This document shows positions 4,191 through 26,066 of a stretch of DNA of 64,000 nt, piece after piece. Numbering within the stretch: the first letter of the stretch is position 1; the number at the start of each line of letters is the position of its first letter. The notes beneath the pieces were generated by a model. The model saw nothing but the letters and a program-made list of their open reading frames with translations. It was not told the origin of the DNA and made no database searches. A program made the translations under genes and the position numbers. The DNA is taken from contig CM097883.1 of the NCBI GenBank assembly GCA_044892505.1, positions 242,358,001 through 242,422,000 on the forward strand. Direction: 5' to 3'. The stretch is from Schmidtea nova (lineage: Eukaryota).

Positions 4191-4301
4191 TTTCTACAAT
4201 AATATATACTTTTCTACAATAATATATACATTCGACTTGTCATTTATTTTTGATTTTTCTTGTTTTTATTTTACATATTTACAGTTTTCCGCTTTATTTA
4301 T

Positions 4302-8200: not shown

Positions 8201-9226
8201 TAACGTTAAAATCACTGTTAATAATAGTAATTCTGGTTTGAAGAATGGTTTTATGGTTGATTTATAACCTGTTCTTTGGGTGTCATTTTTATCTCCTTGG
8301 TCGTTTTTTCCTTGTTCTCCCTCTTCATCTCTTTGTTTTTCGTCTTCATTTTTCTTTTCTTCCTTGTCTCGTTTCTTGTCTTTTCTCTCGTTTTCCTCTT
8401 TATCGGGTGGTTCGTGATCGTTTGAATTTTCTGAGTTGTTATCGTCGTCACTATCTGCATTGTCATCTCCCCCTGGCTCGTCGAAAATGTCGTCCTCGAC
8501 ATTGATTTCTTCTATTAGTTTTGCATACGCTAATGTCGTTAGATTACTTGCCTCGAATTCTTGTGTTTCTACCTGCTCCGGTATTACTTTGTTAGTGGAT
8601 TTATATTCCAAGATTTCCTTTTTGGCCTTGATCCAATTGTTGATGTATGTCTTCATCAATTCTTTCCATTTGCCTGTGTATTTTTCTTCTTTCGGGCTGG
8701 TTGTGATTTTTAGATCCTTTCTTTCCATAAACATCTTCAATATCTCTGGCCATTTATATGTTATTAGGGCACTTCTTATACACCAGTTTTGGTTATGTTC
8801 TGTAAACTCATTAATCCTGAATGCTAGTTCGTTGGTATTCGGATTTATCCACGTAAGTATTGATTCTGTTAGTTCAACATTGTGCATCATTGTCAATACA
8901 CTGGGTTTCTTAATTGTTTTGGTTAGGTATTCTATTTCTTCCTGGTTTGAGACGGTTTTAATGAAATTGACCATTTCCCAATTGTGTGTTAACAATGCTA
9001 CATCCAATATTGAATTATCTTTATCTGTTTTACCTGTAAGTCCTGCACCTGCTTTATATAGTTCTTCCAACACCTTTGTTTTTGTTTTGGCCCTTGCTGC
9101 AAATATCATAAGTGTATCTCCTTTCTCGTCTATCATATTCATGTTGCTTCCGCAGTTTAGCATTACTCTTGCAATTTCCATTACTTTTCTGTCTTTGCCA
9201 TTTCGTAAAGCTCTATGTATGGGCAT
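5237..9226 (-). CDS. Ankyrin repeats, helical domain, acidic linker, then two signal-peptide-led blocks of FN3-like modules (about 7) with a TM
   Basis: MPIHRAL, KGDTLMIFAA and NSILDVAL are ankyrin-like. Repeated CW..IxxLxxxxxYxIC..C modules. Hydrophobic segments LLLLTVILTLIN, LGLTIILTLIN and a TM near 6470-6535. Confidence 0.85.
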   Translation of the reverse strand: MPIHRALRNGKDRKVMEIARVMLNCGSNMNMIDEKGDTLMIFAARAKTKTKVLEELYKAGAGLTGKTDKDNSILDVALLTHNWEMVNFIKTVSNQEEIEYLTKTIKKPSVLTMMHNVELTESILTWINPNTNELAFRINEFTEHNQNWCIRSALITYKWPEILKMFMERKDLKITTSPKEEKYTGKWKELMKTYINNWIKAKKEILEYKSTNKVIPEQVETQEFEASNLTTLAYAKLIEEINVEDDIFDEPGGDDNADSDDDNNSENSNDHEPPDKEENERKDKKRDKEEKKNEDEKQRDEEGEQGKNDQGDKNDTQRTGYKSTIKPFFKPELLLLTVILTLINPSQGMTCEERAIIQIKNAKGIERVCWSKKDKITEQNSPMDCRISEHEQEIIEINDLDLNTWYKICTVRKQKHPRSHNTIACAKYQTPKAAMTIQQSPKGDYIIGKCGRTETQGTENKKPQAIDKQTTPTIRITIERPEARVATNETERVSYQMEVLYLALILIIIKRLEEGIEIETMTITEVEDTQNTNIKCWARNNEEIGVNEIRKSRKPTTNKVIKVSEVKADKTYKLCLLEKETNKKGTTKCKTFQPGEVIKFRRRTRKRNKQIKRKVNITLEIKEIEPNVKGVCWRKYEKKVNKRMTPQCRTSTGATTIQIKGLESKQTYEICLVKKNDQITINDLECGIHITSSGTRTKTLTRKNKRKQRNKGKPKYTTTFKNNKQPISQEVTTKPERKTSATLTLWKIENKTLEICWIIVQKHIRRQSRECRKTNKEIRIEKLQFNSEYEVCTIEKMDALGNQQERCETYYTPANATSKGVARKLEFKELSQTNEQMDAEKIITDPQAKWTPEEVIKEVKRKQQEREQLRRQLKGQYGIMFNQSESIQTDENKQIKELIGLGILTATIPVIIALSAIWIRKISPRKSTTQWLNIDNTSHGVEILEEKAREEPNKKEAKSGKLGINNEDKEIKEIKGEEKKYERRTRSLPQSSKWLGLTIILTLINREEATNLQAGIKIVNVQEVEKICWNREDELIGKDNPLKCIIRKSNQDIVRIEGMDRGIMHRICIIGKEKKSGLPKTVVCQKYETPRLEWYRVKPTKKEIKNTIDQPATQIRNTTDKPGEGERSTNNTRERISPQQECVCIALIIAMSKRFDRGIIIEQMAITIRKTSSNKLCWGTYNEPRKEYQVQTSDESRTNKEIEIQEIQMNEEGSICIWEKGTQEDQPGTENCKTFRKGEILKFDEEELIKTERTLTLTGLDQTVKGICWTKHKPEVEEDNLTHCKEIKNKEKVELKKMEVNRTYAICTFTRKGSEKPECGLYQISEKLQ

Positions 9227-12200
9227 TATTCCGTCCTTTGGTAGTAAAAAATGTTACTGGCATCTCCTTTTTTATAGTCGTTATGTCGTTACCATTGTAT
9301 GTTCCTTTTGCGTATGCGTGTACTTTTTCAACTAATGCGCCGAGTATTTCCAGTGCATGTTTACTATTCTCGAATTCCGGTAACAATTCTTTTGCTTTTT
9401 CTTGTATCGCATCTAGTCTAGCTTGGTATGGTGCTTCTGCTTTGAAGAGTGGTGTGAGTTTCCTGTTACTTTCTCTTTCTTTTTTCTCCAAAACCTGTTT
9501 GCATTTTTCGGGGTGGTTTAGGATTTTTACTAGTTCATCATACTCATTTACTATCGTCTGGTATTTCTCGTTAAAATTGTTTATGTCTTTGTATGTTATT
9601 AGTTTATCAAGTGGTTTCGCACACCATTTCCTAATCTTGTTGAATAAAGCCTCCTTCTCTTTATCGAATTTGTGTTCTTCTTCATTCTTTGTGATGTTTA
9701 TGTTCCCTCTGTCTAATAAGGTTAGTAATGTCTTTTGATCGCAAGTAAATTTCAAAAGATATCTTAACAGCGCGTTTTGTCCTTCGCTGTATACTTCGTT
9801 TATGTCTAAGACCCATGTATCATCTTCTGGTCGTTTCCATTTGATTAACTTACGGATCGTGTTGCATTTACCAATTTTTATTGCTTCTTTGATAATGTCT
9901 CCTTTTATTAATTCGTCTATTTCCCACGTGGAGTTAGCTATTATGTATTTCAGCATTGGTTGGTGAGAACTCCATATTACGTGATTTAGCACTGTTTTGT
10001 CTTCTCTATCTCGTTCTGTCCAACTGAAATGAGCCTTTATCAACAGATCTATCATTTCTTTATCTGCTTGGTGGATTGCGGCTGTCATTATTGGAGTTTC
10101 TTGTTCACGATTCCCCACGTCCAAGTTTTGGTTTGTTTCTTTTGCCATTTTTAAGAATTCTTTTGCTCTTTCAATGTTTTTACACTCTATCGCATTGTGT
10201 AAGGCTGGTTGTCCTCCTACATCTTTCAATAAGAGTATTTCAGGGATTTTTTCCAATAATTCAGAAATAATTGGTTCGGTTGGTAATCCTTGTGCGTAAC
10301 GGCTAATTATGTGTCTGATGTCCCTTGATATGCCTACTTCGTCTTTAACATGCCATCTTCCCATTATTTCTCTCGCCTTCAATATGATCTCTTTATTTCT
10401 GATTTCCTTTTGCCTTACTTCCGCTTTGTCGTCTTCGCTTGTGTTTGCTCTGAGCATATTTATCCTGGCTGTTTGTGATCTGGTTATTATTCGATTCTCT
10501 GGTGTTGTAGTTATTGTTTTAGGCACCTTCTTACATCTGCAAGTGTTTACATATATGGGTCGTATTAACGGTCGATTTATTAGCTTAACTTTGACATTAT
10601 TGTCCTTTTTGTATATAATTTCATAAGGTCCTCTTCCAGGTCTTTGGAGTTTCTTAACCGTTCCTGGTATTATTTCGGGAGTTTCTATTATCACCCAATC
10701 TCCTGGTTTTAGGTCGTTCGCTTTAACATTTTTCTTCTGGTCGTGTAAATCCTTATAACTTTCCTGATAAAATTTAATGTTAAGTTCTGCCGTCTTCCAT
10801 ATTTCCTGCATTCTTTCTTTGAATTTGGTTACGTAGTCGTCGTCTTCCATATATTGCGATAATGGTGGTTGATACTCTAAATCTATGGGCATGTTGCATT
10901 CTCTTCCATACATAAGTTGAAACGGGCTTAGTTTTGTTGCTGCATGTATCGACATGCGGTATGCCATTAAACATAATTTTATGTATTCGTCCCAATCGGT
11001 TTGATGTCTGCTGACGTAATTTGATAACATTCTAATCAATGTACCGTTGAATCTCTCTGTTTGTCCATTCGTTTGCGGGTGATATGGTGAAGTTCTCAAT
11101 TTTGCTATTCTGAAATAGTTGGTCACCTCGTTCAGTAACTCACTCATAAAGTTGGTTCCTTGGTCTGTGAGAATTTGTTTTGGAGTTCCGTATCTGCAAC
11201 ATATTTCTTCCACTAGAATTTTTGCTACGGTTTTTGCTTTTTGATCTTGCATGGCAAATGCTTCCGGGAATTTCGTCAGATAATCCGTTATTACCAATAT
11301 ATAAATATTTCCGTTTAAACTTTCTGGTAATGGTCCTATTACGTCCATTGCTATAGTTGTCATTGGCTCTGCTGGTATTGGCATTGGTTGTAGTGGGTTT
11401 TTCCATTTCTTCCCACTATCCTTTCTGGTTGCACAGGTTAGGCAATTTTTAATCCATTCTTTAATATCTTCTTCCATTGTTCGCCAATAATATTTTTGTC
11501 TCATACGATTTATTGTCTTTTTCTCTGACATATGCCCTCCTAATTTCCCATCATGGTATTGGATCATTATCTCTTTCCTTCTGTTTTCCGGTAAGCACAT
11601 CAATTTCTTTACCCCGTCTTGTATTAACAACCATTCTTTGCTTAATATATAGCGATGTTGATATTTTCCTATATGTTCCTTTAATTCCTTATTATCCTTG
11701 AATACCTCCATATTTCGAGATGTTAGGAACTCTATGATTTGTCCTAATTCTTTGTCTTCCTGCTGATCTCTCTTAAGCTCGCTAAAATCTAAATCTTCTG
11801 CTATTAATACACAAATTCGTTGTACATCAGGATCGGTTAGTTCCGGGAATGTCAGTCTTGACATACAGTCTGCATTCGCATTTGCTCTTCCTGATTTAAA
11901 TTTTATATCTGGTGAGTATTCCTGTAACTGCATTGCCCATCGCATTAATCTACTGGATGTTTCTTTGTGCTGTCCTAACCATACAAGCGGTTGGTGATCT
12001 GTTGTTATGCAGATGATGTGTCCCCATAATAAATATTTAAAATGTTTAATCGCTAATATAATCGCTAATGCTTCCCGTTCTGTCACTGAATAATTTTTCT
12101 CATGCTTTTTGAATGTCCGGCTATAATATCCGATTACACGTTCTTTTCCTTCATCATCGTATTGTCCTAATACTGCTCCCGCTGCATATCCGCTTGCATC

Positions 12201-15200
12201 TGTTGCAAGTAGGAATGGCTTCTTAAAGTCTGGGTGTACCAATATGGGTGCGGTTATCAGTTTATCTCTCAACGTTTCAAAGGCTGTTTGTTGTTCATCC
12301 CCCCATATGAATGATACATCTTTCTTTACCAGCTCTTGTATAGGTTTTGCGATTCCGGCGTAATCTTTAATAAACTTTCTATAGTATCCACATAGTCTGA
12401 GAAATTCTTGTATTTGGGTTATTGTTTTTGGTACTGGGCATTCTTTTACTTTGTCGATATTTCTAGGATCCGGTTCTTTTCCTTTTGCTGACACTATATA
12501 TCCTAAAAATGTAACCTTTTCTTTTGCCCAATCGCATTTGGATGGCTTGAGTTTTAACTTCCATTGTCTAAGCCTAACGAATACATCTCGAATATCCTGT
12601 ATGTGTTGTTCTAATGTACTAGAATAAATTAATAAATCGTCGATGTAGACCATGCACTGCTTTATTCCATGGGTGACGAAATTCATGCATCTCTGAAATG
12701 ATGCTGGTGCGTTTGTTAATCCAAATGGCATTTTTCGGAATTGATATAGGTCTCTACCGATGGTAAAGGCAGTTTTCTCTTTATCTTCTTCCTTCATTTT
12801 TATTTGCCAATATCCGCTTTTCAGATCTAACGACGTAAAATATGCTGCTCCTTGTAGTGTTAGTAGCATTTCGTTGATGTCCGGTAATGGATAAGTATCC
12901 CGTTTGGTCACGGTATTCAATCTTCGATAATCTATGCAAAATCTCTGTGTTCCGTCTTTCTTCTTTACCATTACCACTGGAAATTGCCAGGGTGAACAAC
13001 TTGGTTCGATTACTTCCGCATCCAACATTTTCTTCACTTCTGCTTCTGCTACTGCTTTCTGTGCTTCTGCTAATTTGTATGGTCTTAATGCAATTGGTGT
13101 TTCGTCTGTTAATGGTATTGTATGTAGTGTGACATCACATGTTCCTAGATCTAAATCGGATGCTGCAAATATATCCTTATACTCTATCATGAGTTTTTCT
13201 AACTGCTTCCTTTGATCCTCATTTAATAATTCACTATCAATATTCCAGGTTGGTTCTTTATCTTTCTCTGCTCCTTCTATTGGTAGTTCGATATCCATCA
13301 TTGGGGTTAATTTACCTAATCTTTCGTTTTCGTAGATTATTTTGTCCTCTTCATCGAAGTTTACTACGTTTATTGGGATTTCTCCATCGTCATTTATGTT
13401 GACTAGTCCTCTTGCCATTGGTAATGCTTTTCTTTTCTCGAATCTTTTGCTTGGTTCGAAAATCATATCCCCCTGGATTGTCGGATCTATTTTTACATAA
13501 CATATTTTTTCCTTTCTTGCGGGTATTATCATTTGCTTTGAACTTGTCACTTTGGCTTCTATTGCGCATATTTGTCCTGTGCGATCTTTCAGTCTCATTG
13601 TTCCGAGATCGATTACAATCTCTTTAAATAATGCTGGCATCAAATCTGTTCCGATAATGCAAGGTACGCTTAATGCTGGTATGACGGCTACGTACGTATC
13701 GATTTCTGTATTTAAGTGGCGTATTTTTACCCACCATCTTCCTGCTACTTCTACGATTTCTTTGCTACATGCAATTACGTGGACGTTTGTCCTTTCTATT
13801 TCCCGTCTTTGCTCTTGTGGTATCCATTTGATATCGATGGCGGAAATATTTGCTCCAGTGTCGATCATTGCTTCGATTTCTCTTCCGTTAATCTCTATTG
13901 TCGTGGTTAATACTGGACCTGTGTTTGATGACATTACTGCGATCGTGTGTGTATCTCCTTGTGGATCTACGCTTCTACATCTTCTCATTTTATAATCTTC
14001 TGGTATCATGGGGTATACATTTGTCATTGGCATCATTTGCATCGTGCTATTTTTTCCTCCTTGTAGTGGTTCTTGATACATTGTTGGTGGAGGTGCGTAA
14101 CATTTCCATGCGTCGGCTGGATTCTTTTCGATGTACTGTGGTGCTTGGTTCTTATACACTTGTCCTCCTTTATAGTCGTCATCGTCATCATCGTCGTCAC
14201 TCGAATCATTTTGGGTTTTATATCCTTTCATCCTCTCCCATAAACCTTTTCTTTCTCTCTTGAGCTGTTGTCTTGCTTGTTCGTCGTTCATTATCTTTTT
14301 AAATTTGCGTCCTACTTCTTCATCTGTTCCCTTCATTTTTGCTAATATCTTTAGGAGTCTTTTTATTCGGTGGATATCTTTTGAGTGACCGTGTAACACC
14401 ATCGTTTTCGCAAGGAATGGTAAAAATCCTACTACCATTTTCCAATTCACTTTCTTTTCTCTCTTGTAGATATCGAAACACGCTAGCATTTGCGTTATTA
14501 TCACTCTGACGATTTGTATTATTAATATAACCCCTAGTATTCCAGCCATCATTTGTCCGAATATCAGGAATCTTCCCCACATTGCTTTCATCATATTTTC
14601 TGTGGCTTTCTTGAAATGTGCTGGTGACAACAATAGTTCATAATTCGGTCCTTCTCGATAATCCGTTCCTCCCGTTATCGTTACGATATTTAACAGTAAT
14701 GCTTCTCTTCTCGCCGGGAATAATATATTCTGCCTTGCTGCTTCTAAATCTTTTGGGCTATATATTCCGTTGTTTGAGACATCTACGTCGCTGAATTGCC
14801 TATCCTTTGACAACTGCATTAGTTCGAATTCTCTTGGTGCTATTACTTCGGCTCTTCCTGGGAACATAACCCATTTACCATCTGGCTTCTGATAAAGCGG
14901 TCCGTATGCATTACTACAGTTGAATGGATTTGGTTCAAACCCTGGTGGATTGATGATTCTCGTCACCGGTTGAACGTATCGTACTTTTCCTTTGTAATCG
15001 ATTTCTAACTCATTTGTACAGGTTCCAGGTTTCAACTGTGTTGTTGCTGCTAGTGACGCGTGTGTCTTTTCGCAAATGTATACATACATTGCTTCTCCAA
15101 CCACTCTTCCGAAATGTCCTTCTCTCAGTGGTAATAATGGCATCGCGCTATCTGGATTCGTAATCGCTACGGCCAACTTTGTCTTTAATATTTCTCGATT

Positions 15201-18200
15201 CAGTATACAATCATTATTTATCAGATCGTAATACACTTTTTGTAATGAGGCTTGTCCTCTATGGAATAAGAAATCCATTTTATTATTCACATACAGGTGT
15301 AGTTTGATATCCATTGTGTCGATTTTGGGTTTCGCATTTGGTACTTCTTGTTTTGACACATATATTCCTGGGTAATTCGTTTCGTATACCGTTGTACTAC
15401 ACTTAAGGGTTGCTTTCCCTTTTATGAACCTCATTCCCACATCCTGATTTGTGGTTATCAATACTGTTGGTGTGGCTCTCATCTCTATCCGTTTTTCCCT
15501 ATGATCTGGTTTCAATTGTCTTTTATTCTCCAACGCTTCCTTGAGATGCTTTGCTCTAGCTTTGTCGTCATCGTCTTCTTCCTGGAATGTCTTTCCTTGA
15601 ATTTCGTCGAACTGTGCTCCTTGTAGCAGTTGTAATTGACATTCGTTCACCTTTGGTTTGTATACTAATGTTGACATTCCCGTTTGACACATGCTCCTGT
15701 CGATTTTACACATGGATAACGTTTTCATTTCTCCCGTTGTTGGTTCGAAGAATGCTTCATAGCTTTTTAATTCGACTATATACGTATCCATCACCACTAA
15801 GTTAGTTGCGGGTGTTCCGAATATCGGGTAGGTTTCTCCTTGACAATATCCTTCTCCTCCCGTAATCCTTCCTGCTACATAGTATGTTTGTTGCAGCATC
15901 ATTCCTGGTTTTCCTCTTATCTTGATTTTATCTCTTGTTGTTACTTCTCCATGTTTAAACAATGCTTCGCAGTCTTCTCCTTGTAACACGATTGGTTCTC
16001 TTTCCGTTCCTGGCATGACAATTGCTGAATAATGTCCTCTCCCGCAGTAGAATGCGAATCTCGTCTTCTGCACCTTACATTCATTCACCATTGTCTTTAT
16101 GAGTTCTGCTTCTTGATACACGTGGTACCATTGTTCCTTTTTAATCTTTTGTAACTCTACTGGAGTTGCATCTTTGCATTGCTCCGTACCTCTCAATGAA
16201 TACTTTTCTCCTAACTTCATTTGGTCGCAATCAAACACTTCGAATGCTGTTGCGCTATCGGTGCTAATCATCCATATCAACATCATCATTATTATAGAAC
16301 TCAAATTCATTGATGACTTCGCGTTTCCTGTTCCTGCTTGTTCTTTTTCTAACTCTTCCAATATTTTTTCGAATTTCTTTTTCATATTCTTTGCTTGCGT
16401 TTTCTTCTGGTTATTTTTTATAAATGTTTCCCATCCTCCTTTGTTAATGACGTATGGTTCTATTTCTCTGGCTATAATTTTTGCGGTATTTTTTATATGT
16501 CTCTCTAATGCAGTGGGTTTTGGTCGACCTCTACTCAGTGTCAACAGATTGTAGATCGTGTATGCAATGGCTATTATGTATTTATTATCCGTTTCCGCTC
16601 CTTCTGTCAGTTTCTTTATTAACGTAGTGGTTCCTTGCCAGTCTAAATGATTTGATTTCGTCTTTTCTTTTATGAATTCCGGTAAGATGGGTGCGATTGC
16701 GCTGTGTAGTGACTTCGCCTTTTCGCTTATCTCAGTTATCCGCCAGTATTTTCTTAATTCCGGATCAATTATTGCCAATATTTCCATTATTGTTTTCGAT
16801 ATCCATTCCTCCCCTTGACATATTGGTGTTGTCTCTTTTTCTTTTATCTCCGCAATTTTATTTAGTTTCCTTAAGCATAATTCCCATTGGTCTTGTCTCT
16901 TTTCATCCTTATTTCTGATGACTACATTCGCTGGGTCTGTCTTGGGTCTACCTCGAGGTCGTCTATCCATTCCTGTACCTGTTTCCACAAACCTTGTTGC
17001 CCGTCCGGTTTCCTCGGTGACATCTCTTGGTTCGTTAGCTCTTTCTTCTAACCATCTTTCCATTTCCTGGGTTAATTGTACATTTTCGGCATATGCTCCT
17101 CTTGTTTCATCTTCTGTCAAATCGTTTACTTCTTCTATTATTATCTCTTGTTCGACTTCTGTTTCTCCGGTGTTGGTTACTTGTATTGTCGTAGGTAATT
17201 CTTGTATTCTTTCGAAAATGTTATCGTCTTTTTCCTTTGTTAATTCGGTTAGCTCTTCTATCATATCGTCACTATCCGTTAAAATTTCGTCTACGTCGTA
17301 TGGTTGTGGTGGAGTACTTTCTCTGGTTCCTCTGGGTGTTGTCTCAGATCGTCTCGAACTTGTCCCTGGCGTTAGTACTGATTTCATCGGGCTCGGCGTA
17401 CTTATACTTCCGTGTGGTTTATGGTTTTCTTCTTTACGTTTCAATGGTTGCCCCGCTATTGCTTCCACTGTCAAGGTATTCATGAGATCTAATTGTGCTG
17501 GCGTTATTCCGATTTCCAAACTGTTATCTAATGATCGTCCTTGGTGTTGTAAATGGAATGGTGGTTCGTATCTCAATTTCTTTTTAATATCTCGAATTTT
17601 TTCTGCTATTCCTACCCAAAGCTCTTCCTTATCCTTGTTTGGATATATTATTCTTAAATGTACTTTTTGTGGAATTTCTTGCGAGAATTCTTGATTTCTC
17701 CATTTCCTAATTACGTGGTCTAGTTGTTCCGGGCACCACTCGTTAACTCTTTTATATTCCGCGATTGCTTTTGCTACTTTACGTAAACATGTTATATCCT
17801 CTCCATTTACCACGAAAAAATCTGCGAGACCCTTTATTACTTTTCTCTTACCGTGCGCATTAGTTTTTAATATTTCGACAAATTCTTCCGTTTTTTGCTT
17901 TTCCCTTTCTAACCACATAGCCGCGGTTTCTGGTCCATCTAGGTCTATCGGTGTAGCTTTCCTTGTCACCATGCAAACCCTTCCCATTTCTGGTTCGCAG
18001 TCATCTTCCATTCCTCTTTCATATTCTTCTTCATATTCTCCTTCTTTTGGTTCCCAACATTTTCCTTTCTTGTTCCATTGTTTTTCTACGGGTGTTCGTA
18101 TTCGTCTGTTGAGGTTGAGTTCTTCTAATACATTTTCCCACTCTGGCCAAATTCGCCAATTTCGATAAATTTCTACTATTTGTTGTAATTTGCGCACAAC

Positions 18201-21200
18201 TTCTTTCCGTCGTTCCCGTTCTCTTTTCTCATCTTTAGCAGTTTCTCTGGGTGTATCGTCCATTCTGATAACGTGGATGGTTTGGTGATTATCCCATATA
18301 CCGATTTTATATAGTCGTCTCTCATCGTGATCCCATAATACATGTTCGTTGTATTGTATGATTATGTCGTCTTCCCATTCGTCTTCTGGTTCTCTTTGCA
18401 CTAGTGTCTCGTTGATGACATTTATTAATTCTTTAATGGTGCAATCCGCTACCACTTCAATTTCTTTGGTGTCTTCATTAGGCAATTCTACTGAAATTTT
18501 TAGATCCGTTATTTTCCCTTGTCTAAACATTATTTTTCCCATTTTTGCGATTAATTTGTCGTGTGAGATCTGTGACCATCTCGTGTGGCTTGTGTCACGT
18601 ATGCACTCAATACATCGTTTCAATTTCTCGTATTCGCTTCTCATTAACTCTTTTCTATGTTTTTTGACTTGTGGTATGATTTGTTCTATCAGGGAATTTA
18701 GATTCTTTCGTAAGACTCGTTCTTTCTCGTATTCTAACCGGGGTTTTATTCTCCTTTCGAAACACATGTTTGCTTCCTTTGCAACTTCTTGTAGGTTCTC
18801 TTCTTCTTTTTCATCACATATTGATAACAGAGTTATTTCTCCTGGCCATATACCTGTTTCCACTAAGTGCGTTCTTTTCTTTACGAGTCTATTCTGCGAA
18901 TAGATGAATTTGTTTTTATATGAGCTCCCGAGCCTGTCTTCTACCCATCTGTAGATATCATCTGTAAATGGAGTTTTGATCCAGATTCTTGGTGTAGATG
19001 TATTTATTATTATTGAGATGGTGTAATTGAGGAGTGGTTCCTCTATTAATTTCCCTACGTATCGATTTAACATGTCTACTTCTCGGTCTTGTAACCATTC
19101 TTTGTAGTTCATTTGTAATAATGCTTTCATGAATTTCCGATATTGTTTCTTGTCCATGAATTCTTCGTTATATATTACTTCTAGCGAGTTATCTAATAAT
19201 TTCTGGATTTCATCTACTTTTATCTGTGTAGGTTCTGAGGTCTTTATTACTTCTCTCTCTTGGTTTTCGTCTTCGGATTCGTTTAATATGTCTCCTGCTA
19301 GGCTACTGATGTCACTATCTTCTTCCTCATCGGAAAACTCTCTGGTGGTATTTCTTAACATATTAATATGTGCTATTTGGTTCGTTTCCCCTTGTATGTT
19401 CTCCGTTGGTTCTGGTTCGTTTTTGTCAATCTCTGATGTTGGTTCACTCTTGTCCTCTATTACTTCGACCTTTCTCATTTTCTTTTCCAACTCGTCTATT
19501 TCTTTTAAACGTCTTCTTATCATTTTTCCTTTAAATATTCGACTGATTCGGGTTTCGTGACGCACTGGTGGTGGAATTTCTTCTGGTTCTATTTCTTTAA
19601 TAATCATCACGTTTCTTTTTGTTTCTACTACTCCCATGTTTTCCCATATATCCGTTAATTCCAACTTTACTTTTGGCGCACCTTCTATTTGTAGGAACGC
19701 TTCTCTGGGCAGTTTCGTTACTCCTAGAACCATCTGGTTTACTTTGTTGAATAATATTCCCACTTCTTCTTTTACGTTATACTGGAATCTAAACACGGAT
19801 TTGTTGGGCATGATTACCATCATTCTTCTTTTCCAAATCTCCCTTTTCTCTTCCTGGTTTGTCTCAGTTTCCACTTCCTTTTCTATTTCTTTTTCTACCT
19901 CCTCATCTTTTTGTACTATCTTTTTTTGACTTTTGTTGTCGGCTGGATTCGGGTCTATCGAATTCATTTCCAGTGTGGTTTCTTTCTCGCGAGTGTCTGT
20001 TTGGTTTGTTGCTCTTAGCATGTTAATTCTTAGAGGTTGTCGCTCTCTTTCTTGCTGTTTTTGTTCATCCTCTCTTTGTATTCTTGCCCATTCCTGAGCG
20101 TGTCGTGCCTGACTTTCTCGATTCAAACGTTCGTTTTCGCTTTCTATTTTTCTCATCATGCTAATTTGCTGTTGATTGGTTTGCGGATTTCCTCTCGTCG
20201 TATTGTTTATCAGTTCCGTCAACCTTTGAACTTCTTGCATCAAATGTATTTCTTTGGGGGTGGTTTTGTTCTGATTATTGTTATTATTGACTTGTTGGTT
20301 CCCATAATCTTGTCGGTTTACGGTATTTGTTTGATTTCCGTAATTTTGTCGGTTCCCATTACTCTGCCAGTTTCCTCGCTGATTACTTTTTTGTCCGCAA
20401 TTTCTTGAATAGTGACCAGGTCGTCCGCAATTAAAACAGATTATTGTAGAACATCTACTTTCCGAATGTCCTTTAACTCCACATTTTCCGCAATTCAAAT
20501 TTTGATAGCATTCTTGTTGCCAGTGTCCCAATTTTCCACATGTTTTACATTGTCTTGTTTGTCCTTGAGGGTTGTAATTGTTTTGGTTTCCAAAGTTCTG
20601 CACTTTATTTCCTTCATTCCTTCGTTGAGGGGGTGGTCGGTTTAATTGTTGCGAATTTGGAATGTGATTGTTGAGATTTACCTGTGGTTCGGTTTGTGCT
20701 GTGTCCATGGCTAAATAAATTCTGCCCTCACTTCCTATCATATGCAATTCGAATCGGTTAGCTGTTTCTAACGCTTGATCAATGGTCTTGCATCCTTGGC
20801 ATCCAACTTGCGCTCTTATGTCAGGTCTTCTTAGTCCTCCTATGAAGATAGCTGCCATTAACTCCTCGTTTATTGGACCTCCATCCTTGAATACCGATTT
20901 TGCTAATTTTTTCAGTTCACTCGCGTATACCGCATTAGATTCATTCATCTTTTGTTTCCTCATTGAGAATTCTATGAATGCCTCGCTTAGCACTTTATTT
21001 ATTCCAAATGTTTGTTGGAAAAAATCCTTTATCGCTGTCCAGCTTGTAGGTGGATTGGTACCATTTTTCGCTTCCAAATATAGGTCCAATGCACTATCTT
21101 TCAAATATAACTGAATTCTGCTTACTGTTGTTTCCGCTTTCCATTTGCATACTTCCACGAATATGCCAAATTCCTTTAAAAAGGTTTCTAATTTACTCGC

Positions 21201-21806
21201 ATCTCCGTTAAATGGTTCTCCTGAAAATTTATCCTTTATTTCTTCTCTTGGTTCACCCATTTCAATTCCGCTGTCTTGAGTTATTTTACTTTCGTTTCCT
21301 CTGGTTTCTAGTTCGTTGTTATGTTCGTCTTCTGTTTCACTCGAGCTTGAATCGCTTTCTGTTTCTCTTATTACTTCGTTATCCGATATTATACTTTCGT
21401 TATCACTCGCGTTGATTTCTATCTCTGGTTCTACCTCGTTTTCTACTTCTTCGATATTATCGTTGTTAGTTTCGTCGATTTCTCCTTCTTGTTCTATCTC
21501 GTGTTCTATTTCCTCGATATTATCGTCGATTTCTATTTCACTTGTTTGGTTCTCCTTGGGTTCCGCATGGTTTTCTTTGTTACTTGAGCAGTTGCTTGCT
21601 ACTGATAATTTATCGTTTTCGATAATCGATTTATCTCTTATTATTCTCCTCGCTTTACTCCCTTGTGGGTTCTTGTTGTTATCTTTGCCGGCTTTCTGCT
21701 TTTTTGCTGTTTTTGTTGTAGTACTAATTTTGTCTTTTTTGTTAATATTGCTGCCGACTTTCTTTTCCGTTGGCTTTACTACGACAATCTTTGCTCCTTT
21801 TCTCAA
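9213..21806 (-). CDS. 4197-aa polyprotein: Gag, UBL array, Bcl-2-like, Env, PR, RT, RNase H, IN, ankyrin
   Basis: Single uninterrupted ORF; domains listed separately. The TTG start is assigned by the ORF track; the first ATG is at 21260. Confidence 0.96.
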   Translation of the reverse strand: MRKGAKIVVVKPTEKKVGSNINKKDKISTTTKTAKKQKAGKDNNKNPQGSKARRIIRDKSIIENDKLSVASNCSSNKENHAEPKENQTSEIEIDDNIEEIEHEIEQEGEIDETNNDNIEEVENEVEPEIEINASDNESIISDNEVIRETESDSSSSETEDEHNNELETRGNESKITQDSGIEMGEPREEIKDKFSGEPFNGDASKLETFLKEFGIFVEVCKWKAETTVSRIQLYLKDSALDLYLEAKNGTNPPTSWTAIKDFFQQTFGINKVLSEAFIEFSMRKQKMNESNAVYASELKKLAKSVFKDGGPINEELMAAIFIGGLRRPDIRAQVGCQGCKTIDQALETANRFELHMIGSEGRIYLAMDTAQTEPQVNLNNHIPNSQQLNRPPPQRRNEGNKVQNFGNQNNYNPQGQTRQCKTCGKLGHWQQECYQNLNCGKCGVKGHSESRCSTIICFNCGRPGHYSRNCGQKSNQRGNWQSNGNRQNYGNQTNTVNRQDYGNQQVNNNNNQNKTTPKEIHLMQEVQRLTELINNTTRGNPQTNQQQISMMRKIESENERLNRESQARHAQEWARIQREDEQKQQERERQPLRINMLRATNQTDTREKETTLEMNSIDPNPADNKSQKKIVQKDEEVEKEIEKEVETETNQEEKREIWKRRMMVIMPNKSVFRFQYNVKEEVGILFNKVNQMVLGVTKLPREAFLQIEGAPKVKLELTDIWENMGVVETKRNVMIIKEIEPEEIPPPVRHETRISRIFKGKMIRRRLKEIDELEKKMRKVEVIEDKSEPTSEIDKNEPEPTENIQGETNQIAHINMLRNTTREFSDEEEDSDISSLAGDILNESEDENQEREVIKTSEPTQIKVDEIQKLLDNSLEVIYNEEFMDKKQYRKFMKALLQMNYKEWLQDREVDMLNRYVGKLIEEPLLNYTISIIINTSTPRIWIKTPFTDDIYRWVEDRLGSSYKNKFIYSQNRLVKKRTHLVETGIWPGEITLLSICDEKEEENLQEVAKEANMCFERRIKPRLEYEKERVLRKNLNSLIEQIIPQVKKHRKELMRSEYEKLKRCIECIRDTSHTRWSQISHDKLIAKMGKIMFRQGKITDLKISVELPNEDTKEIEVVADCTIKELINVINETLVQREPEDEWEDDIIIQYNEHVLWDHDERRLYKIGIWDNHQTIHVIRMDDTPRETAKDEKRERERRKEVVRKLQQIVEIYRNWRIWPEWENVLEELNLNRRIRTPVEKQWNKKGKCWEPKEGEYEEEYERGMEDDCEPEMGRVCMVTRKATPIDLDGPETAAMWLEREKQKTEEFVEILKTNAHGKRKVIKGLADFFVVNGEDITCLRKVAKAIAEYKRVNEWCPEQLDHVIRKWRNQEFSQEIPQKVHLRIIYPNKDKEELWVGIAEKIRDIKKKLRYEPPFHLQHQGRSLDNSLEIGITPAQLDLMNTLTVEAIAGQPLKRKEENHKPHGSISTPSPMKSVLTPGTSSRRSETTPRGTRESTPPQPYDVDEILTDSDDMIEELTELTKEKDDNIFERIQELPTTIQVTNTGETEVEQEIIIEEVNDLTEDETRGAYAENVQLTQEMERWLEERANEPRDVTEETGRATRFVETGTGMDRRPRGRPKTDPANVVIRNKDEKRQDQWELCLRKLNKIAEIKEKETTPICQGEEWISKTIMEILAIIDPELRKYWRITEISEKAKSLHSAIAPILPEFIKEKTKSNHLDWQGTTTLIKKLTEGAETDNKYIIAIAYTIYNLLTLSRGRPKPTALERHIKNTAKIIAREIEPYVINKGGWETFIKNNQKKTQAKNMKKKFEKILEELEKEQAGTGNAKSSMNLSSIIMMMLIWMISTDSATAFEVFDCDQMKLGEKYSLRGTEQCKDATPVELQKIKKEQWYHVYQEAELIKTMVNECKVQKTRFAFYCGRGHYSAIVMPGTEREPIVLQGEDCEALFKHGEVTTRDKIKIRGKPGMMLQQTYYVAGRITGGEGYCQGETYPIFGTPATNLVVMDTYIVELKSYEAFFEPTTGEMKTLSMCKIDRSMCQTGMSTLVYKPKVNECQLQLLQGAQFDEIQGKTFQEEDDDDKARAKHLKEALENKRQLKPDHREKRIEMRATPTVLITTNQDVGMRFIKGKATLKCSTTVYETNYPGIYVSKQEVPNAKPKIDTMDIKLHLYVNNKMDFLFHRGQASLQKVYYDLINNDCILNREILKTKLAVAITNPDSAMPLLPLREGHFGRVVGEAMYVYICEKTHASLAATTQLKPGTCTNELEIDYKGKVRYVQPVTRIINPPGFEPNPFNCSNAYGPLYQKPDGKWVMFPGRAEVIAPREFELMQLSKDRQFSDVDVSNNGIYSPKDLEAARQNILFPARREALLLNIVTITGGTDYREGPNYELLLSPAHFKKATENMMKAMWGRFLIFGQMMAGILGVILIIQIVRVIITQMLACFDIYKREKKVNWKMVVGFLPFLAKTMVLHGHSKDIHRIKRLLKILAKMKGTDEEVGRKFKKIMNDEQARQQLKRERKGLWERMKGYKTQNDSSDDDDDDDDYKGGQVYKNQAPQYIEKNPADAWKCYAPPPTMYQEPLQGGKNSTMQMMPMTNVYPMIPEDYKMRRCRSVDPQGDTHTIAVMSSNTGPVLTTTIEINGREIEAMIDTGANISAIDIKWIPQEQRREIERTNVHVIACSKEIVEVAGRWWVKIRHLNTEIDTYVAVIPALSVPCIIGTDLMPALFKEIVIDLGTMRLKDRTGQICAIEAKVTSSKQMIIPARKEKICYVKIDPTIQGDMIFEPSKRFEKRKALPMARGLVNINDDGEIPINVVNFDEEDKIIYENERLGKLTPMMDIELPIEGAEKDKEPTWNIDSELLNEDQRKQLEKLMIEYKDIFAASDLDLGTCDVTLHTIPLTDETPIALRPYKLAEAQKAVAEAEVKKMLDAEVIEPSCSPWQFPVVMVKKKDGTQRFCIDYRRLNTVTKRDTYPLPDINEMLLTLQGAAYFTSLDLKSGYWQIKMKEEDKEKTAFTIGRDLYQFRKMPFGLTNAPASFQRCMNFVTHGIKQCMVYIDDLLIYSSTLEQHIQDIRDVFVRLRQWKLKLKPSKCDWAKEKVTFLGYIVSAKGKEPDPRNIDKVKECPVPKTITQIQEFLRLCGYYRKFIKDYAGIAKPIQELVKKDVSFIWGDEQQTAFETLRDKLITAPILVHPDFKKPFLLATDASGYAAGAVLGQYDDEGKERVIGYYSRTFKKHEKNYSVTEREALAIILAIKHFKYLLWGHIICITTDHQPLVWLGQHKETSSRLMRWAMQLQEYSPDIKFKSGRANANADCMSRLTFPELTDPDVQRICVLIAEDLDFSELKRDQQEDKELGQIIEFLTSRNMEVFKDNKELKEHIGKYQHRYILSKEWLLIQDGVKKLMCLPENRRKEIMIQYHDGKLGGHMSEKKTINRMRQKYYWRTMEEDIKEWIKNCLTCATRKDSGKKWKNPLQPMPIPAEPMTTIAMDVIGPLPESLNGNIYILVITDYLTKFPEAFAMQDQKAKTVAKILVEEICCRYGTPKQILTDQGTNFMSELLNEVTNYFRIAKLRTSPYHPQTNGQTERFNGTLIRMLSNYVSRHQTDWDEYIKLCLMAYRMSIHAATKLSPFQLMYGRECNMPIDLEYQPPLSQYMEDDDYVTKFKERMQEIWKTAELNIKFYQESYKDLHDQKKNVKANDLKPGDWVIIETPEIIPGTVKKLQRPGRGPYEIIYKKDNNVKVKLINRPLIRPIYVNTCRCKKVPKTITTTPENRIITRSQTARINMLRANTSEDDKAEVRQKEIRNKEIILKAREIMGRWHVKDEVGISRDIRHIISRYAQGLPTEPIISELLEKIPEILLLKDVGGQPALHNAIECKNIERAKEFLKMAKETNQNLDVGNREQETPIMTAAIHQADKEMIDLLIKAHFSWTERDREDKTVLNHVIWSSHQPMLKYIIANSTWEIDELIKGDIIKEAIKIGKCNTIRKLIKWKRPEDDTWVLDINEVYSEGQNALLRYLLKFTCDQKTLLTLLDRGNINITKNEEEHKFDKEKEALFNKIRKWCAKPLDKLITYKDINNFNEKYQTIVNEYDELVKILNHPEKCKQVLEKKERESNRKLTPLFKAEAPYQARLDAIQEKAKELLPEFENSKHALEILGALVEKVHAYAKGTYNGNDITTIKKEMPVTFFTTKGRNNAHT
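9900..10220 (-). other. Ankyrin-repeat block fused downstream of integrase (approximate bounds)
   Basis: GQPALHNAI, QETPIMTAAI, DKTVLNHVI repeats. Confidence 0.85.
10600..11600 (-). other. Integrase (HHCC zinc finger, DDE core, GPY/F motif; no chromodomain seen); approximate bounds
   Basis: YHDGKLGGH..CLTC; AMDVIGPLP; TDQGTNF; NGQTERFN; GPYEI. Confidence 0.95.
11860..13060 (-). other. Reverse transcriptase and RNase H (approximate bounds)
   Basis: YIDD at 12636-12647; TDASGYAAGAVLGQ; NYSVTEREALA; TDHQPL. Confidence 0.97.
13310..13920 (-). other. Aspartic protease followed by a degenerate dUTPase-like linker (approximate bounds)
   Basis: AMIDTGANIS (DTG at 13854-13862) and IIGTDLM. The linker IIPARKE..MIFEPS..ARGLV..IPINVVN resembles the PR-RT spacer of many gypsy elements. 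Confidence 0.85.
14200..16310 (-). other. env: Envelope glycoprotein, chuvirus/gB-like class III fusogen (approximate bounds)
   Basis: Internal signal MNLSSIIMMMLIWMISTDSATA then FEVFDC; CKVQKTRFAFYCG; LHLYVNNKMDFL; C-terminal MWGRFLIFGQMMAGILGVILII TM. These match my recollection of chuvirus-type glycoproteins. Confidence 0.8.
16415..16900 (-). other. Bcl-2-like domain (approximate bounds)
   Basis: EIEPYVINKGGWETFIK is BH2-like (compare HTWIQDNGGWDAFVE); a degenerate BH1-position helix NKYIIAIAYTIYNLL precedes it at plausible spacing. Confidence 0.7.
17450..19810 (-). other. Array of 3-4 ubiquitin-like domains with helical spacers (approximate bounds)
   Basis: LKISVELPNEDTKEIEV..CTIKEL..IIQYNEHVL..LYKIGI..TIHVI and VHLRIIYPN..KIRDIKKKL..LQHQGRSL follow the ubiquitin pattern. 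Confidence 0.65.
20396..21260 (-). other. gag: Gag capsid-like domain and three CCHC zinc knuckles
   Basis: FNGDASKLETFLKEF..LYLKDSALDLY..FIGGL; CKTCGKLGHWQQEC, CGKCGVKGHSESRC, CFNCGRPGHYSRNC. Confidence 0.93.
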
Positions 21807-22381
21807 GGGGATTACTTTTGTATACTCAATTTTCTTGTCCTATCTCTTATCGTGTTCTGATTCTTCTTGCTTGATTGATTGATTTGATTGATTTGTATAT
21901 CTAAAATACAAAGGTCCTCAACGATACATTATTGTTATCGTCGCGCTTTTATTCCCTTTCTTTCGGGATTACTTATTACTGGGTTTTCATTATTTCCCAA
22001 TTCCCAGATTCCCCTTTATTTTTAGTCTATTTAAATTATCTATAGACTGGTCACAATTATCTATTTATGTCGTAATAATTATCTATACTTTATAAATCAA
22101 TTACTTTTCCCACAGTTTCCCAATTTATTGGTCGCTCGAGCGCTCTAATTCCCTGAGTCTTTCTGACTCGTTTATCGTTATTTTATCATCTTTATTCATT
22201 ATTCCCTGTTAGCAATTGTTTTACTCATTCTGCCGGTTGCTCCGGTCAGCTCAAATCTCTACTATTCTCCTTGCATGCTTTATTTAAGGTTGCATAATCA
22301 GCTTTACTCGCATTCTCTTAACTACTAGTGCGCACTACTCTAAATCTCGTCGACGATTACACTATGGGTCTATATTCCCTC

Positions 22382-22934
22382 TGTAGTGGCACGGTTCATT
22401 CATATATTAAATTACAAAAAATTAAAAATTGTTTTGTAAAAAACTTGTTATTTAAAAATTGTAGTTTAAAAATTAATTTTATAAAAAGTTGTTTAAAACT
22501 ATCAAAAGTTGTAAATAAAAATAAATATTTGTTATCTTAATTTAAAAGTGTTTTCTTAAATGGCTTCCAGTATTTCATTCATTAATATTGAATATTTGAC
22601 ATTTAATCACTGCAAACAATCGGATTATACCAATAGCGAAGAAGTCATTCAATTACAATTCAATGATCTCTTTGGATTACTAAGAACTGAGGCCAAGCTT
22701 AATAATAATCTTTCATCAAAGGACGATTTTGAAAGGCTATTCAAAACATGGATTCCATCTGTTGATAATCAGTATGAACAGACAATTAATGAGCCATTCC
22801 ATGATGCGATTTTATTCCACAGTACTCAAAGTCGACTCAGTAGAAGTTTAACAAATTTAAAGATAAAAACAGATACTGACTCAAACATAATGCTAGAAGG
22901 TTTCGAGAAGGCGCACTACGCCCGAAACACTTCA
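22382..22934 (+). repeat. 5' LTR of the nested element (553 bp)
   Basis: Starts TGTAGTG, ends CACTTCA; its last 147 bp (22788-22934) repeat at 25585-25731 with one mismatch seen. Confidence 0.88.
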
Positions 22935-24323
22935 TTGGTGTCAGAAGTGAAAGAAAGCCACACCTCCTGGCTAAGAAAAATTGTAAGTAATTTTTATATG
23001 AGTGTAATTTTTGCCGCTCCATTGGTTCCCCCTCGCATTAGCCCAGTCCATTTAAGGGAAAACGGGACAACCACTTTCATCAATAGCCAACACACCTTTT
23101 TATCTCCTCACACTTTTATCCCTCATAAATCAGATCACGCCATCCACTTCCGTTTCGGTATGAGATTTTTCAGTGTCCGCATCTCCACACCATCTTACGA
23201 TGCATTTTCACAGGCAGTTTGCCAAATTTTTAAACAACATTCATATGATTTTTACGTCACACAAAACGGCATTATATTAAATTCTCTGTCTGACATCTCA
23301 GAGACCGTCATCGTACAAGTTAACCTAAGAGCACGGGGAGGCATGAAAGACGGGGACACGGATACCAACGACATTGAAATTCACCCACACCCATTCACGG
23401 CTCCTTCGTTCTTTCTGGACGCAGATAAATCCCCAAAAGCGTGGCTCATTTTGGTCAACATCGCACTCGAAGAAAGTGGACGTTTCACGCCCTACAAAAA
23501 ATTCTCCGCTTTAATTATATCTCTCCCAGCGGAAATCCTATCAAAAATAGCGCATCTTACCGAACAACTTAGTAACAGCACAAACCCCTATCTGGCACTT
23601 AAATCAGCCATCACCGAACTTTATCTAGAACCTGTGAAAGACGTTTTTGAACGTGTTTTCAAGGAGCAATCATTGGGATCAGACCTCCCTTCGGTTTTTT
23701 TGAAACGCTCCATAGAAAGCCTCGAACGCCTCAAAGTAGGCATCACTAAGGATGATACAGTACTCCGTCATTCTTTCCTTTCCGCACTTCCAATCCAGAC
23801 GAGAGCGATTCTTTCAGTTGCGGAAACAACCTCTTTAGACAAATTAGCGGAAATGGCCGATAAGATCTCTGCGATCTCCTTAGCACCTAAACCTTGTCTT
23901 TCCTTAACTACAGAAGCACATCCACCAGTTACATCACACTCAACGAGCACTCCCTCGACCATGATCGAAGAGAGGCTCACGGCAGCCCTCGAAAACTTAG
24001 GTAACAGACTGAGCCGTTTGGAGGACCACCAGACCAAATGCCGCAGGAAACGTTTTTTTAACAGCAAATCTCCTAAGAGAACTCCATCCGCAGGTGGTAA
24101 ACTAATTTGTCGCCTACACTTAAAATTCCAGAAAAACGCGAGATGGTGCGCAATCGGCTGCGCTTGGCGCAATCGTTCGAACGACTGCAAGAACTCAGAT
24201 GTGTGGATATACCATGACAGGTTTCGCACTGACGCAAGACGTTGCCTTCAAGGTTGCAAACATTTCACAAATTTTGCGAACCAATCATTAACCACCGAAG
24301 AATTCAACTCCTCAAAAAACTGA
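22560..24323 (+). CDS. gag: Nested Gag with an N-terminal ubiquitin-like domain ending LRARGG
   Basis: SPKAW..KKFSAL..NPYLALKSAI..FLSALP..LDKLAEMADKI; two H..F..AR.C..GC motifs; A AAA AAC slippery heptamer at 24314-24320 just before the stop. Confidence 0.88.
   Translation: MASSISFINIEYLTFNHCKQSDYTNSEEVIQLQFNDLFGLLRTEAKLNNNLSSKDDFERLFKTWIPSVDNQYEQTINEPFHDAILFHSTQSRLSRSLTNLKIKTDTDSNIMLEGFEKAHYARNTSLVSEVKESHTSWLRKIVSNFYMSVIFAAPLVPPRISPVHLRENGTTTFINSQHTFLSPHTFIPHKSDHAIHFRFGMRFFSVRISTPSYDAFSQAVCQIFKQHSYDFYVTQNGIILNSLSDISETVIVQVNLRARGGMKDGDTDTNDIEIHPHPFTAPSFFLDADKSPKAWLILVNIALEESGRFTPYKKFSALIISLPAEILSKIAHLTEQLSNSTNPYLALKSAITELYLEPVKDVFERVFKEQSLGSDLPSVFLKRSIESLERLKVGITKDDTVLRHSFLSALPIQTRAILSVAETTSLDKLAEMADKISAISLAPKPCLSLTTEAHPPVTSHSTSTPSTMIEERLTAALENLGNRLSRLEDHQTKCRRKRFFNSKSPKRTPSAGGKLICRLHLKFQKNARWCAIGCAWRNRSNDCKNSDVWIYHDRFRTDARRCLQGCKHFTNFANQSLTTEEFNSSKN
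22936..22949 (+). promoter_or_regulatory. PBS of the nested element (tRNA-Leu-like)
   Basis: TGGTGTCAGAAGTG one nt after the LTR end; matches the known tRNA-Leu PBS TGGTGTCAGAAGTGGGAT. Confidence 0.9.
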
Positions 24324-24439
24324 TCACCCCGTTTCTTCTTGCGGCAGAAGTAGGCGGTAATCATCCACACAATTTTTTTCTCAAACTCTTCTCACCTAGT
24401 TTTTCTTTTCTCTCATCTCCTTCTCTCAATTCTCCCGAA

Positions 24440-25589
24440 AATTCACTTTCTGATAGATACCGGATCGAGTCTTTCACTACTCCCCATTTCTTTCAGCGCT
24501 GATAACAACACAACTTATACACTCCGCGCTGCTAATGGCAATTACATCACAACCCGCGGTTGTCTACCAGTCACGTTCCGCATTGAGAACCTACCGGACG
24601 AGTATACTTGGACTTTCTCCATTGCCGAGATAAGCTGTCCCATATTGGGGATGGATTTCCTATCTGCCAACCATTTGTTAATAGATTGCTCGAAACACCG
24701 TCTTGCTAAATGTAACGATCCAACCCTCCCCACATCTTCTGCTATTTTGAGCACAACTCCTGATAATTCTAACACTTCACCCCATGACTCCGGTCATTCG
24801 AGATTCATCAATGAACAACTGAACCTCCACCCTCAACTATTAAAACGCTCAAATGATTCAAAATCCTCAAATCCCAGCTACTACCATAGAATTGAAACTT
24901 CTCCTTCTCTCCCTCTCCGAGAACGTTTCAGACCACTGTCAGGAGACAAACTCAATTTCCTTCGAGAAGAAATCCAAAATCTCTTAAATACTGGTGTTAT
25001 TCGACGTTCAGCCTCACCATGGGCCTCACCAGTACACATAGTTGCCAAACATGACGGTAAATTCAGGGCATGTGGGGACTATCGTCGTCTAAACGCGATT
25101 ACCATACATGATTCGTACCCCATGCCCCTCATCAATGACGTCTTATCTAGATTGTCACATGCTTCAGTTTTTTCGACACTGGATTTGGTGAAAGCATACC
25201 ACCAAATACCGGTACATGACATGGATGTGCCTAAAACTGCGATAATAACTCCCTTAGGCCTATTCGAGTATTTACGTATGCCATTCGGACTGAGGAACGC
25301 AGCGCAAACGTTCCAACGTCATATAGATGGCGTTCTTTCTAAATTAGATTTCGCCGTTGCCTACGTCGACGACATTATCGTCGGATCTTCCTCACAGGCA
25401 CAACATTACGAAGATTTACAGAAAGTTTTAGAAGCCTTAGCCAATAATAATCTTCAAATTAATCCTTCGAAATGTTGTTTCTTTCGTCCTGAAGTACAAT
25501 TTCTGGGGCATTTCGTCTCTGGGTCTGGCATCCGCCCCCTACCATCTCGGTTGAAATCCATCAATGATTTTCCTATTCCAGGAAAATGA
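24440..25589 (+). pseudogene. pol: Nested pol fragment: protease and RT, truncated
   Basis: FLIDTGSSLSLLP in frame with ORF 24645-25589; FRACGDYRRLN, LDLVKAYHQIP, MPFGLRNAAQTFQ, YVDDI. Breaks off into the 3' LTR remnant. Confidence 0.93.
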
Positions 25590-25731
25590 GCCATTCCATG
25601 ATGCGATTTTATTCCACAGTACTCAAAGTCGACTCAGTAGAAGTTTAACAAATTTAAAGATAAAAACAGATACTGACTCAAACATAATGCTAGAAGGTTT
25701 CGAGAAGGCGCAATACGCCCGAAACACTTCA
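25585..25731 (+). repeat. 3' LTR remnant of the nested element
   Basis: 147-bp copy of 22788-22934, followed by TSD CCCTC. Confidence 0.9.
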
Positions 25732-25772
25732 CCCTCTATTACTATTTATCCGGATATCTCTATAGTTCACTA

Positions 25773-26027: not shown

Positions 26028-26066
26028 AACGCCTAGCTAGGTCATTCAATATGGCTCATTGGCCTC

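Follow-up and report, generated by a model that had tools for sequence, protein, structure and literature searches.

The closest described systems are the Burro elements of planarians. In the sections of PMC6431247 that deal with them (citing Grohme 2018 and Jurka 2007), Burro-2, -3 and -4 and GYPSM1/Burro1 appear as ~30-kb elements with LTRs and one huge polyprotein containing three CCHC knuckles. A BCL2-like motif is noted there in Burro-2, -3 and -4, the region between BCL2 and the protease is assigned to an in-frame env lying between gag and pol, and ankyrin repeats, TRAF/MATH cargo and a very high copy number complete the picture; all of these properties recur in the element described below. 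The IAP cargo of Burro1 is reported to protect planarian stem cells (PMC13465017, citing Lee 2026, in its part on Burro1), and the relevant passages of PMC8532177 and PMC11410931 mention Burro, not Bcl-2. The gene order GAG-ENV-POL is also found in errantivirus elements, whose hosts include Platyhelminthes according to the corresponding part of PMC13524379.

Signal sequences that stand inside viral polyproteins can leave a stub on the protein upstream. In pesti- and hepaciviruses, signal/anchor stubs stay on the upstream protein after cleavage by signal peptidase and the core is then freed by signal peptide peptidase (SPP) (PMC8310223), and the foamy-virus leader gp18LP is a type II membrane subunit and an SPP-family substrate, foamy Gag having no membrane-targeting signal of its own (PMC3705266). 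Viral signal stubs are often clipped by SPP or released, as the sections on signal processing in these and a third paper have it (PMC3705266, PMC2649029, PMC8310223).

A giant Burro-type element in Schmidtea nova

We analysed a 64,000-nucleotide stretch of Schmidtea nova DNA (assembly GCA_044892505.1, contig CM097883.1, positions 242,358,001 to 242,422,000; hereafter the window), in which an ORF list combined with Pfam revealed a single minus-strand frame of 4,208 codons (9213-21839) encoding Gag, Env and Pol. In order, this frame encodes Gag with three CCHC knuckles, a spacer, a likely Bcl-2-like domain, a signal, Env, protease, RT, RNase H, integrase and ankyrin repeats; Pfam recognized the knuckles, PF24664 (E 6.5e-70), the four Pol domains and the ankyrin repeats. 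Features within the frame lie on the same strand. The Env ectodomain (14586-16244, 14 Cys) belongs by Pfam to the Monjiviricetes (chuvirus-like) fusion glycoprotein family PF24664 and is followed by a predicted stop-transfer transmembrane (TM) segment (14472-14549), and Pol (11022-13904) comprises the protease (13632-13904), RT (12492-12968), RNase H and integrase (11022-11591). The 5' LTR (27583-29806, minus strand, ~2.2 kb) and the 3' LTR share 99.6% identity across 2,033 aligned bases; the latter starts before the window and ends at about base 792. The LTR offset of 29,014 bases plus one 2.2-kb LTR amounts to ~30 kb, a span that includes a nested insertion of ~3 kb or more.

Within its own genome, the 244-residue junction around Bcl-2 and Env had 1,865 candidates, 150 of which gave scored matches with identities of 92-100%; many of these lie in frames of more than 5,600 codons, and the genome search found the frame open from Gag through Env in many copies. 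The apoptosis/ubiquitin cargo typical of Burro is present in the form of the Bcl-2-like domain, a TRAF-like gene and ankyrin repeats, and Pfam found no BIR domain in the eight sequences scanned. On the basis of layout, domains and cargo as in the published description, the element is a recent, high-copy giant gypsy of the Burro type.

Several further features were observed around the main frame. A second minus-strand frame (5237-9253, 1,338 codons) overlaps the end of the first at 9213 and has ankyrin and weak fibronectin-III matches, the TRAF-like gene (2814-4193, minus strand) is an uninterrupted frame inside the element with weak RING, zf-TRAF and MATH matches in Pfam, and frames in other copies reach 5,736 codons. 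About 190 open codons precede the first Met (21260-21839, minus strand), as they also do in 3/3 other copies, and single contigs of sequencing run X1 join 21328 to 22014 or 22019, possibly reflecting a spliced leader or a deletion. In the leader of the window copy a different LTR element is nested on the plus strand (22383-25731, junction near 22383); it encodes a gag-like DUF7041, a protease and an RT, and its first frame contains a stretch, ubiquitin-like by eye, that ends in LRARGG directly before a Met. Two tandem arrays with 32-nt and 29-nt units follow (25728-26332), and adjoining the 5' LTR lies a primer-binding-site-like sequence (27540-27582, minus strand) that begins TGGGGGCTC and is presumably tRNA-Pro-like.

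A diverged Bcl-2-like domain ahead of Env

A preliminary description of this locus had proposed a Bcl-2-like domain whose tail anchor may double as the Env signal peptide. All the motifs on which it drew were found on the minus strand and in frame in ORF 9213-21839: the BH2-like YVINKGGWETFI (aa 1796-1807, nt 16454 down), the hydrophobic SIIMMMLIWMIS (aa 1848-1859, from 16298), the cleavage-like site ATA/FEVFDC (aa 1863-1871, from 16253) and DNKY (aa 1751, nt 16589). The spacing given there as about 35 residues is in fact 40 between the two quoted motifs, and a charged 42-residue linker (16305-16430) leads from the GGW of BH2 (16431-16439) to the hydrophobic core. The extent of the domain had to be redrawn as well: the structural match to a helical Bcl-2-like domain covers aa ~1679-1811 (16407-16805), and an extra predicted helix with the BH3-like word LRKLNKIAE (16842-16910) lies outside it, upstream.

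By itself, the window domain gave no Bcl-2 match in Pfam, including PF00452, nor among PDB sequences (the window-clade profile likewise), nor in the ESM Atlas, where the best match (0.85) is unnamed, and a homolog search with region 1640-1880 or with alignment A1 returned no match for either. Together with the weak models described below, this lack of a direct Pfam, PDB or Atlas match is what speaks for an unrelated helical bundle in which GGW is a chance likeness, a reading to which we give very little credence. First, a PF00452 search of the same genome detected domains above cut-off in other long frames (other Burro families), and behind these sister domains, which occupy the same position, come the linker, hydrophobic stretch and Env start seen in the window. 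Second, transitive profile homology survives shuffling that keeps GGW. Searching the genome with an Env-start pattern (802 matches versus 14 for a control), we fetched 30 loci that include several families, and a library search added 39 proteins, seven of them with a Bcl-2 domain. A profile built from the domain only of 10 sequences outside the window clade matched aa 1683-1808 of the window with 38.7 bits (E 5e-14), and nothing else in the 4,208 aa matched significantly; none of the 998 scored shuffles or of 1,000 GGW-keeping shuffles reached the 47.7 bits of the real segment, the shuffles peaking at 15.4 bits with the GGW end kept or not. Third, of the 15 members of the alignment, 10 match PF00452 with E values no higher than 1, and a joint profile reaches Bcl-xL (E 5e-8) over the BH1-BH2 half. 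The Bcl-2-like nature of the domain is thus upheld by its transitive profile homology to Pfam-positive sister-family domains, and we regard it as a diverged, likely Bcl-2-type domain; whole Burro Bcl-2 families are missed by Pfam.

The homology to Bcl-2 rests on sequence profiles, with which the fold evidence, itself weak and not independent of the alignment, agrees. An alignment-based model of the domain (pLDDT 55, guided by the Bcl-2-positive rows of the alignment) retrieved only Bcl-2 family members among the 50 Foldseek PDB matches listed, at E 0.03-0.27 and none below E 0.001, and viral Bcl-2 proteins ranked first and second in a viral structure library. Members of the Bcl-2 family fold as eight helices packed around a hydrophobic helix 5, bind BH3 helices and control Bak/Bax. 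The structural match to Bcl-2 has a Z of 6.5 with an rmsd of 4.0 over 124 aligned positions (model residues 38-174). In a wide structural search, Bcl-2 proteins made up 14 of the 50 rows listed and scored on a par with unrelated helical repeats (Bcl-xL, Z 6.2, rmsd 3.8, 116 aligned, versus SMG5-7, Z 6.8). A single-sequence model (pLDDT 43) found no Bcl-2 structure in Foldseek and is uninformative.

Conservation of GGW in other copies had been set as a touchstone, and it holds: GGW is kept in 30/30 best-scoring copies and in 29/30 pattern-sampled loci of several families, the single miss being out of frame. The W-x-x-x-x-GGW region of BH2 is present, with G-W invariant in 15/15 alignment rows and Tyr as the first aromatic in the window. 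At BH1, NWGR is indeed not conserved, as had been noted, but its equivalent is TDNK (16581-16592), with the Gly replaced and Lys at the Arg position; DNKY, proposed earlier for this role, was rejected because TDNK aligns there. Among the 14 rows with residues at this place, the NWGR Gly occurs in none and the Arg position is Lys or Arg in all; one sister copy reads INWDR. Poxviral Bcl-2-like proteins such as A46, A52, B14 and K7 act as scaffolds against innate-immune signalling, and a similar role for a fold that no longer binds BH3 helices, independent of anchoring, would fit the lost Gly as well as the TRAF-like gene and ankyrin repeats of the same element; we consider this possible while leaning against it. 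The basic residue kept in all 14 rows argues otherwise, and loss of the Gly is usual in this host, since only 2/11 host Bcl-2-family loci with a readable BH1 motif keep it. Moreover, the IAP cargo of Burro1 is reported to block apoptosis in the pertinent part of PMC13465017. The host genome has many Bcl-2-family loci (L031-L039, L050, L056, L059), mostly with the BH1 Gly replaced (WSR, WSK, WAK, WVK), and the element profile scored best against L036 (35.8 bits) among 13 host matches.

Between four subfamilies, the Bcl-2 domain has a dN/dS of 0.05-0.10 where dS is unsaturated (dS being saturated in several pairs), which indicates purifying selection on the domain, including GGW. The BH3-like upstream helix is common to four families of the genome (LRKLNKIAE, LREIAN, LKEIAN, LREIAS), is not evident in library homologs, and could occupy the groove or mimic BH3. 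A complex prediction between the domain and a 35-residue BH3-containing stretch of host locus L031 scored 0.03 in a run that made no use of the alignment, and carries no weight either way. Further upstream lies RPRGRPK (16941-16961), which we take to be AT-hook-like; similar motifs occur in sister families and in the Bcl-2-less relatives P0001, P0002 and P0004.

The hydrophobic stretch between Bcl-2 and Env

Bcl-2 proteins carry a tail anchor after BH2, and the hydrophobic stretch in the window stands just there, which is the point in favour of a captured Bcl-2 gene whose own tail was later reused as an Env signal. We nevertheless hold such an origin to be highly improbable. First, PF24664 from its position 5 onward aligns from aa 1850, inside the stretch, and does so likewise in relatives. 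Second, the distance from GGW to the signal varies (24-56 residues), whereas that from the signal to the DC motif of Env is fixed. Third, nine relatives with 145-893 upstream residues have the same signal and no Bcl-2 domain, and on the Env tree P0006, which lacks the domain, is the sister of the window clade (support 95/92). Fourth, the three host Bcl-2 tails that we compared lie at the very end of their proteins, starting 13-22 residues behind the Trp, and have basic residues C-terminal to them, while the window segment is internal, homologous to Env signals and followed by STDSATA with no basic flank. Descent from a Bcl-2 tail, as the preliminary description had it, was therefore rejected on the grounds of Env-profile homology and occurrence in relatives without the domain. 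The polarity is the reverse, in that an Env signal peptide, as identified by alignment, stands in place of a lost Bcl-2 tail.

The Env signal sequence (16245-16304) consists of the h-region LSSIIMMMLIWMI (16266-16304) and the c-region STDSATA (16245-16265), with the predicted signal-peptidase cut between 16245 and 16244, and shows a 13-residue core, a polar c-region and small residues at -3 and -1. The suggestion that A-T-A is a signal-peptidase-type site is borne out by the homologs, 24/27 of which obey the (-3,-1) rule at one fixed place, four residues before the conserved DC, compared to a background of 9%. With a peak 19-residue hydropathy of 1.45, the 13-residue core is shorter and weaker than two of the three host tails (14, 18 and 18 residues, hydropathy 1.71-1.86).

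One alternative is that the stretch serves as an Env signal of the usual internal kind and that its stub soon falls to SPP or to degradation, so that Bcl-2 is soluble or loosely bound and just occupies a tolerated insertion site; in our estimation this is unlikely, though far from negligible. In its favour, we compared hydrophobicity in 20 of the 39 library proteins (those in which the Env start could be placed and the upstream sequence was long enough; four short ones were kept apart, and the broken host locus L042 was skipped) and found that the signal of the nine Bcl-2-less relatives differs from that of the Bcl-2-bearing rows (n=14) neither in core length (14.6 versus 12.9 residues, p=0.50) nor in hydropathy (1.88 versus 1.75, p=0.33), the rows not being independent. 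The signal thus shows no sign of adaptation to anchoring. Its h-region is short and surrounded by small polar residues. The domain is also patchy on the Env tree (21 rows, proteins with fewer than 200 Env residues left out, unrooted so that gain and loss look alike), where the Bcl-2 label needs five changes, a number as low in 50/500 shuffles. Moreover, SPP processes pesti- and hepacivirus cores (PMC8310223) and foamy LP (PMC3705266), and the signal peptide of HERV-K ends up free in the cytosol (PMC2649029), as the respective sections of these papers describe. On the other hand, 14/14 Bcl-2-bearing rows have the domain ahead of the signal, separated from it by 24-56 residues that contain no further domain, and within the clade conservation of the h+c region is strong (dN/dS 0.01-0.17), although any signal needs as much.

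A separate explanation would have Env, with Pol, made from a spliced RNA or from an internal Met in the linker, the stretch then being a normal N-terminal signal peptide with little to do with Bcl-2. Two Met codons in the window linker would allow for this, and yet we judge it improbable: an env-only splice is made less likely by the linkers of 4/14 Bcl-2-bearing rows, which have no Met, and by the purine-rich linker DNA, which has no pyrimidine tract, and many copies have an uninterrupted frame from Gag through Env. Contigs of sequencing runs X1 and X2 contained no splice-like joint into the linker, a result on which we place no weight regarding splicing.

Among the relatives and subfamilies, some further observations were made. 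Over 15960-16916, the Env start of the window is near-identical to that of L065 (dN 0.009), and its Bcl-2 domain and linker are closer to L061 (dN 0.07-0.11) than to L065 (dN 0.18-0.49); because the two parts resemble different loci, recombination between subfamilies near the signal/Env junction is likely. An Env-Pol polyprotein from an element of this kind, P0009, carries the label of a Flavobacteriaceae hypothetical protein and is probably animal DNA in a bacterial bin. In P0040, a relative without Bcl-2 (4,844 aa), seven stretches match an aspartyl-protease profile. No Env match was found in a phage collection.

Predicted topology and relation to known systems

Only two strong hydrophobic stretches precede the protease, namely the signal (net charge -4 behind) and the Env TM segment (net +4 behind). 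From these stretches and their flanking charges we predict a cytosolic Gag-Bcl-2 part, a lumenal Env and a cytosolic Pol, with which the topology envisaged in the preliminary description is consistent. Building on the layout, domain homology, conservation, signal homology and cleavage pattern documented above, we infer the anchoring steps as follows. The ribosome would make Gag, spacer and Bcl-2 in the cytosol; the h-region would then enter the translocon with its N side cytosolic, and Env would be threaded into the lumen and its N-terminus cut free by signal peptidase, while the Env TM segment would stop transfer and keep Pol cytosolic, tethered through Env. The 20-residue signal stub would serve as a borrowed, rather short anchor for a Bcl-2 domain captured without its own tail and, until the protease of the element matures Gag, might also hold Gag on the Env-bearing membrane, so that Bcl-2 and uncut Gag would reside on the ER membrane at least briefly. 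We favour this explanation as the probable one: a Burro-type element with a likely Bcl-2-fold domain before the predicted signal of Env, in which the cut at ATA/FEVF would leave Bcl-2, with any Gag not yet cleaved off, attached to the ER from the cytosolic side. The weak core of the signal would favour a transient ER anchor over a mitochondrial tail, and by analogy with viruses the stub might be either retained or released, precedents existing for both. The domain would most likely serve to damp cell death in the host, as a partner to the IAP cargo that Burro1 is described as carrying.

A covalent membrane tether could be useful to Gag, since its first Met stands in the context MGEPRE (the same in 3/3 other copies), which departs from the myristoylation consensus. 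Any such tether would be temporary, given a candidate protease site between Gag and the Bcl-2 domain: a motif scan returned seven candidate viral-protease sites in the polyprotein, and a cut at RVCMV (aa 1287, 17967-17981), the last recurring candidate ahead of the Bcl-2 domain, would release Gag at maturation, the remaining product being ~575 residues long. A bolder extension, which we offer as speculative and rather doubtful as a whole, would be that a tail-less Bcl-2 was captured such that the Env signal became its anchor, that the stub tethers non-myristoylated Gag to the budding membrane and may carry Bcl-2 into particles, and that the upstream BH3-like helix is a built-in groove switch, so that a single segment would link the making of the envelope to capsid targeting and to the suppression of cell death. 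A real anchor would explain how a retroelement whose env is fused between gag and pol brings Gag, Env and Pol together on one membrane without a matrix myristate, and it would supply a second, membrane-placed anti-death module beside the IAP cargo reported to protect planarian stem cells.

Compared to Burro as described in PMC6431247, the domain of the window family is too diverged for Pfam, and signal peptide, topology and anchoring are not discussed in the parts of that description concerned with these elements. In the literature searched, from which Grohme 2018 and Lee 2026 were absent, we found no paper stating that an Env signal anchors a Bcl-2 domain. The element resembles GAG-ENV-POL errantiviruses with an HSV/gB-type Env in its gene order and in having an Env ectodomain with a signal peptide or TM segment in front and a TM segment behind (PMC13524379, in its sections on Env); no Bcl-2 module is described for these, 'bcl' and 'apopto' having no occurrence in the main text. 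With cellular and viral Bcl-2 proteins (Bcl-xL, Mcl-1, Bak; herpesvirus and adintovirus vBcl-2) it shares the BH1-BH2 half by profile and a helical bundle by weak structural match, and it differs from them in lacking the NWGR Gly and a tail of its own, in lying inside a polyprotein and in having an extra BH3-like helix upstream.

As for topology, the arrangement is like that of the hepacivirus and pestivirus core, in which an internal signal behind the capsid precursor starts the translocation of the first envelope protein; those are unrelated RNA viruses without a Bcl-2 module, as the part of PMC8310223 on the core presents them, whereas the upstream part in the window element has ~1,800 residues. 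It is also like the foamy-virus gp18LP in placing a long cytosolic domain before the Env signal and, potentially, in having a membrane-held, Gag-recruiting leader. In the foamy virus, however, Gag and the leader associate non-covalently and cleavage is by furin (PMC3705266, in its account of the leader), whereas in the window element Gag forms part of the same polypeptide and the cleavage site resembles one for signal peptidase. Judging from the sequence, the window thus probably contains a real and newly found diverged Bcl-2-like domain with a plausible topological twist, in which anchoring is suggested by analogy. The cargo and the gene order have already been published and signal stubs as anchors are textbook knowledge in other viruses, so that the gain is a testable topology and not a new kind of system.
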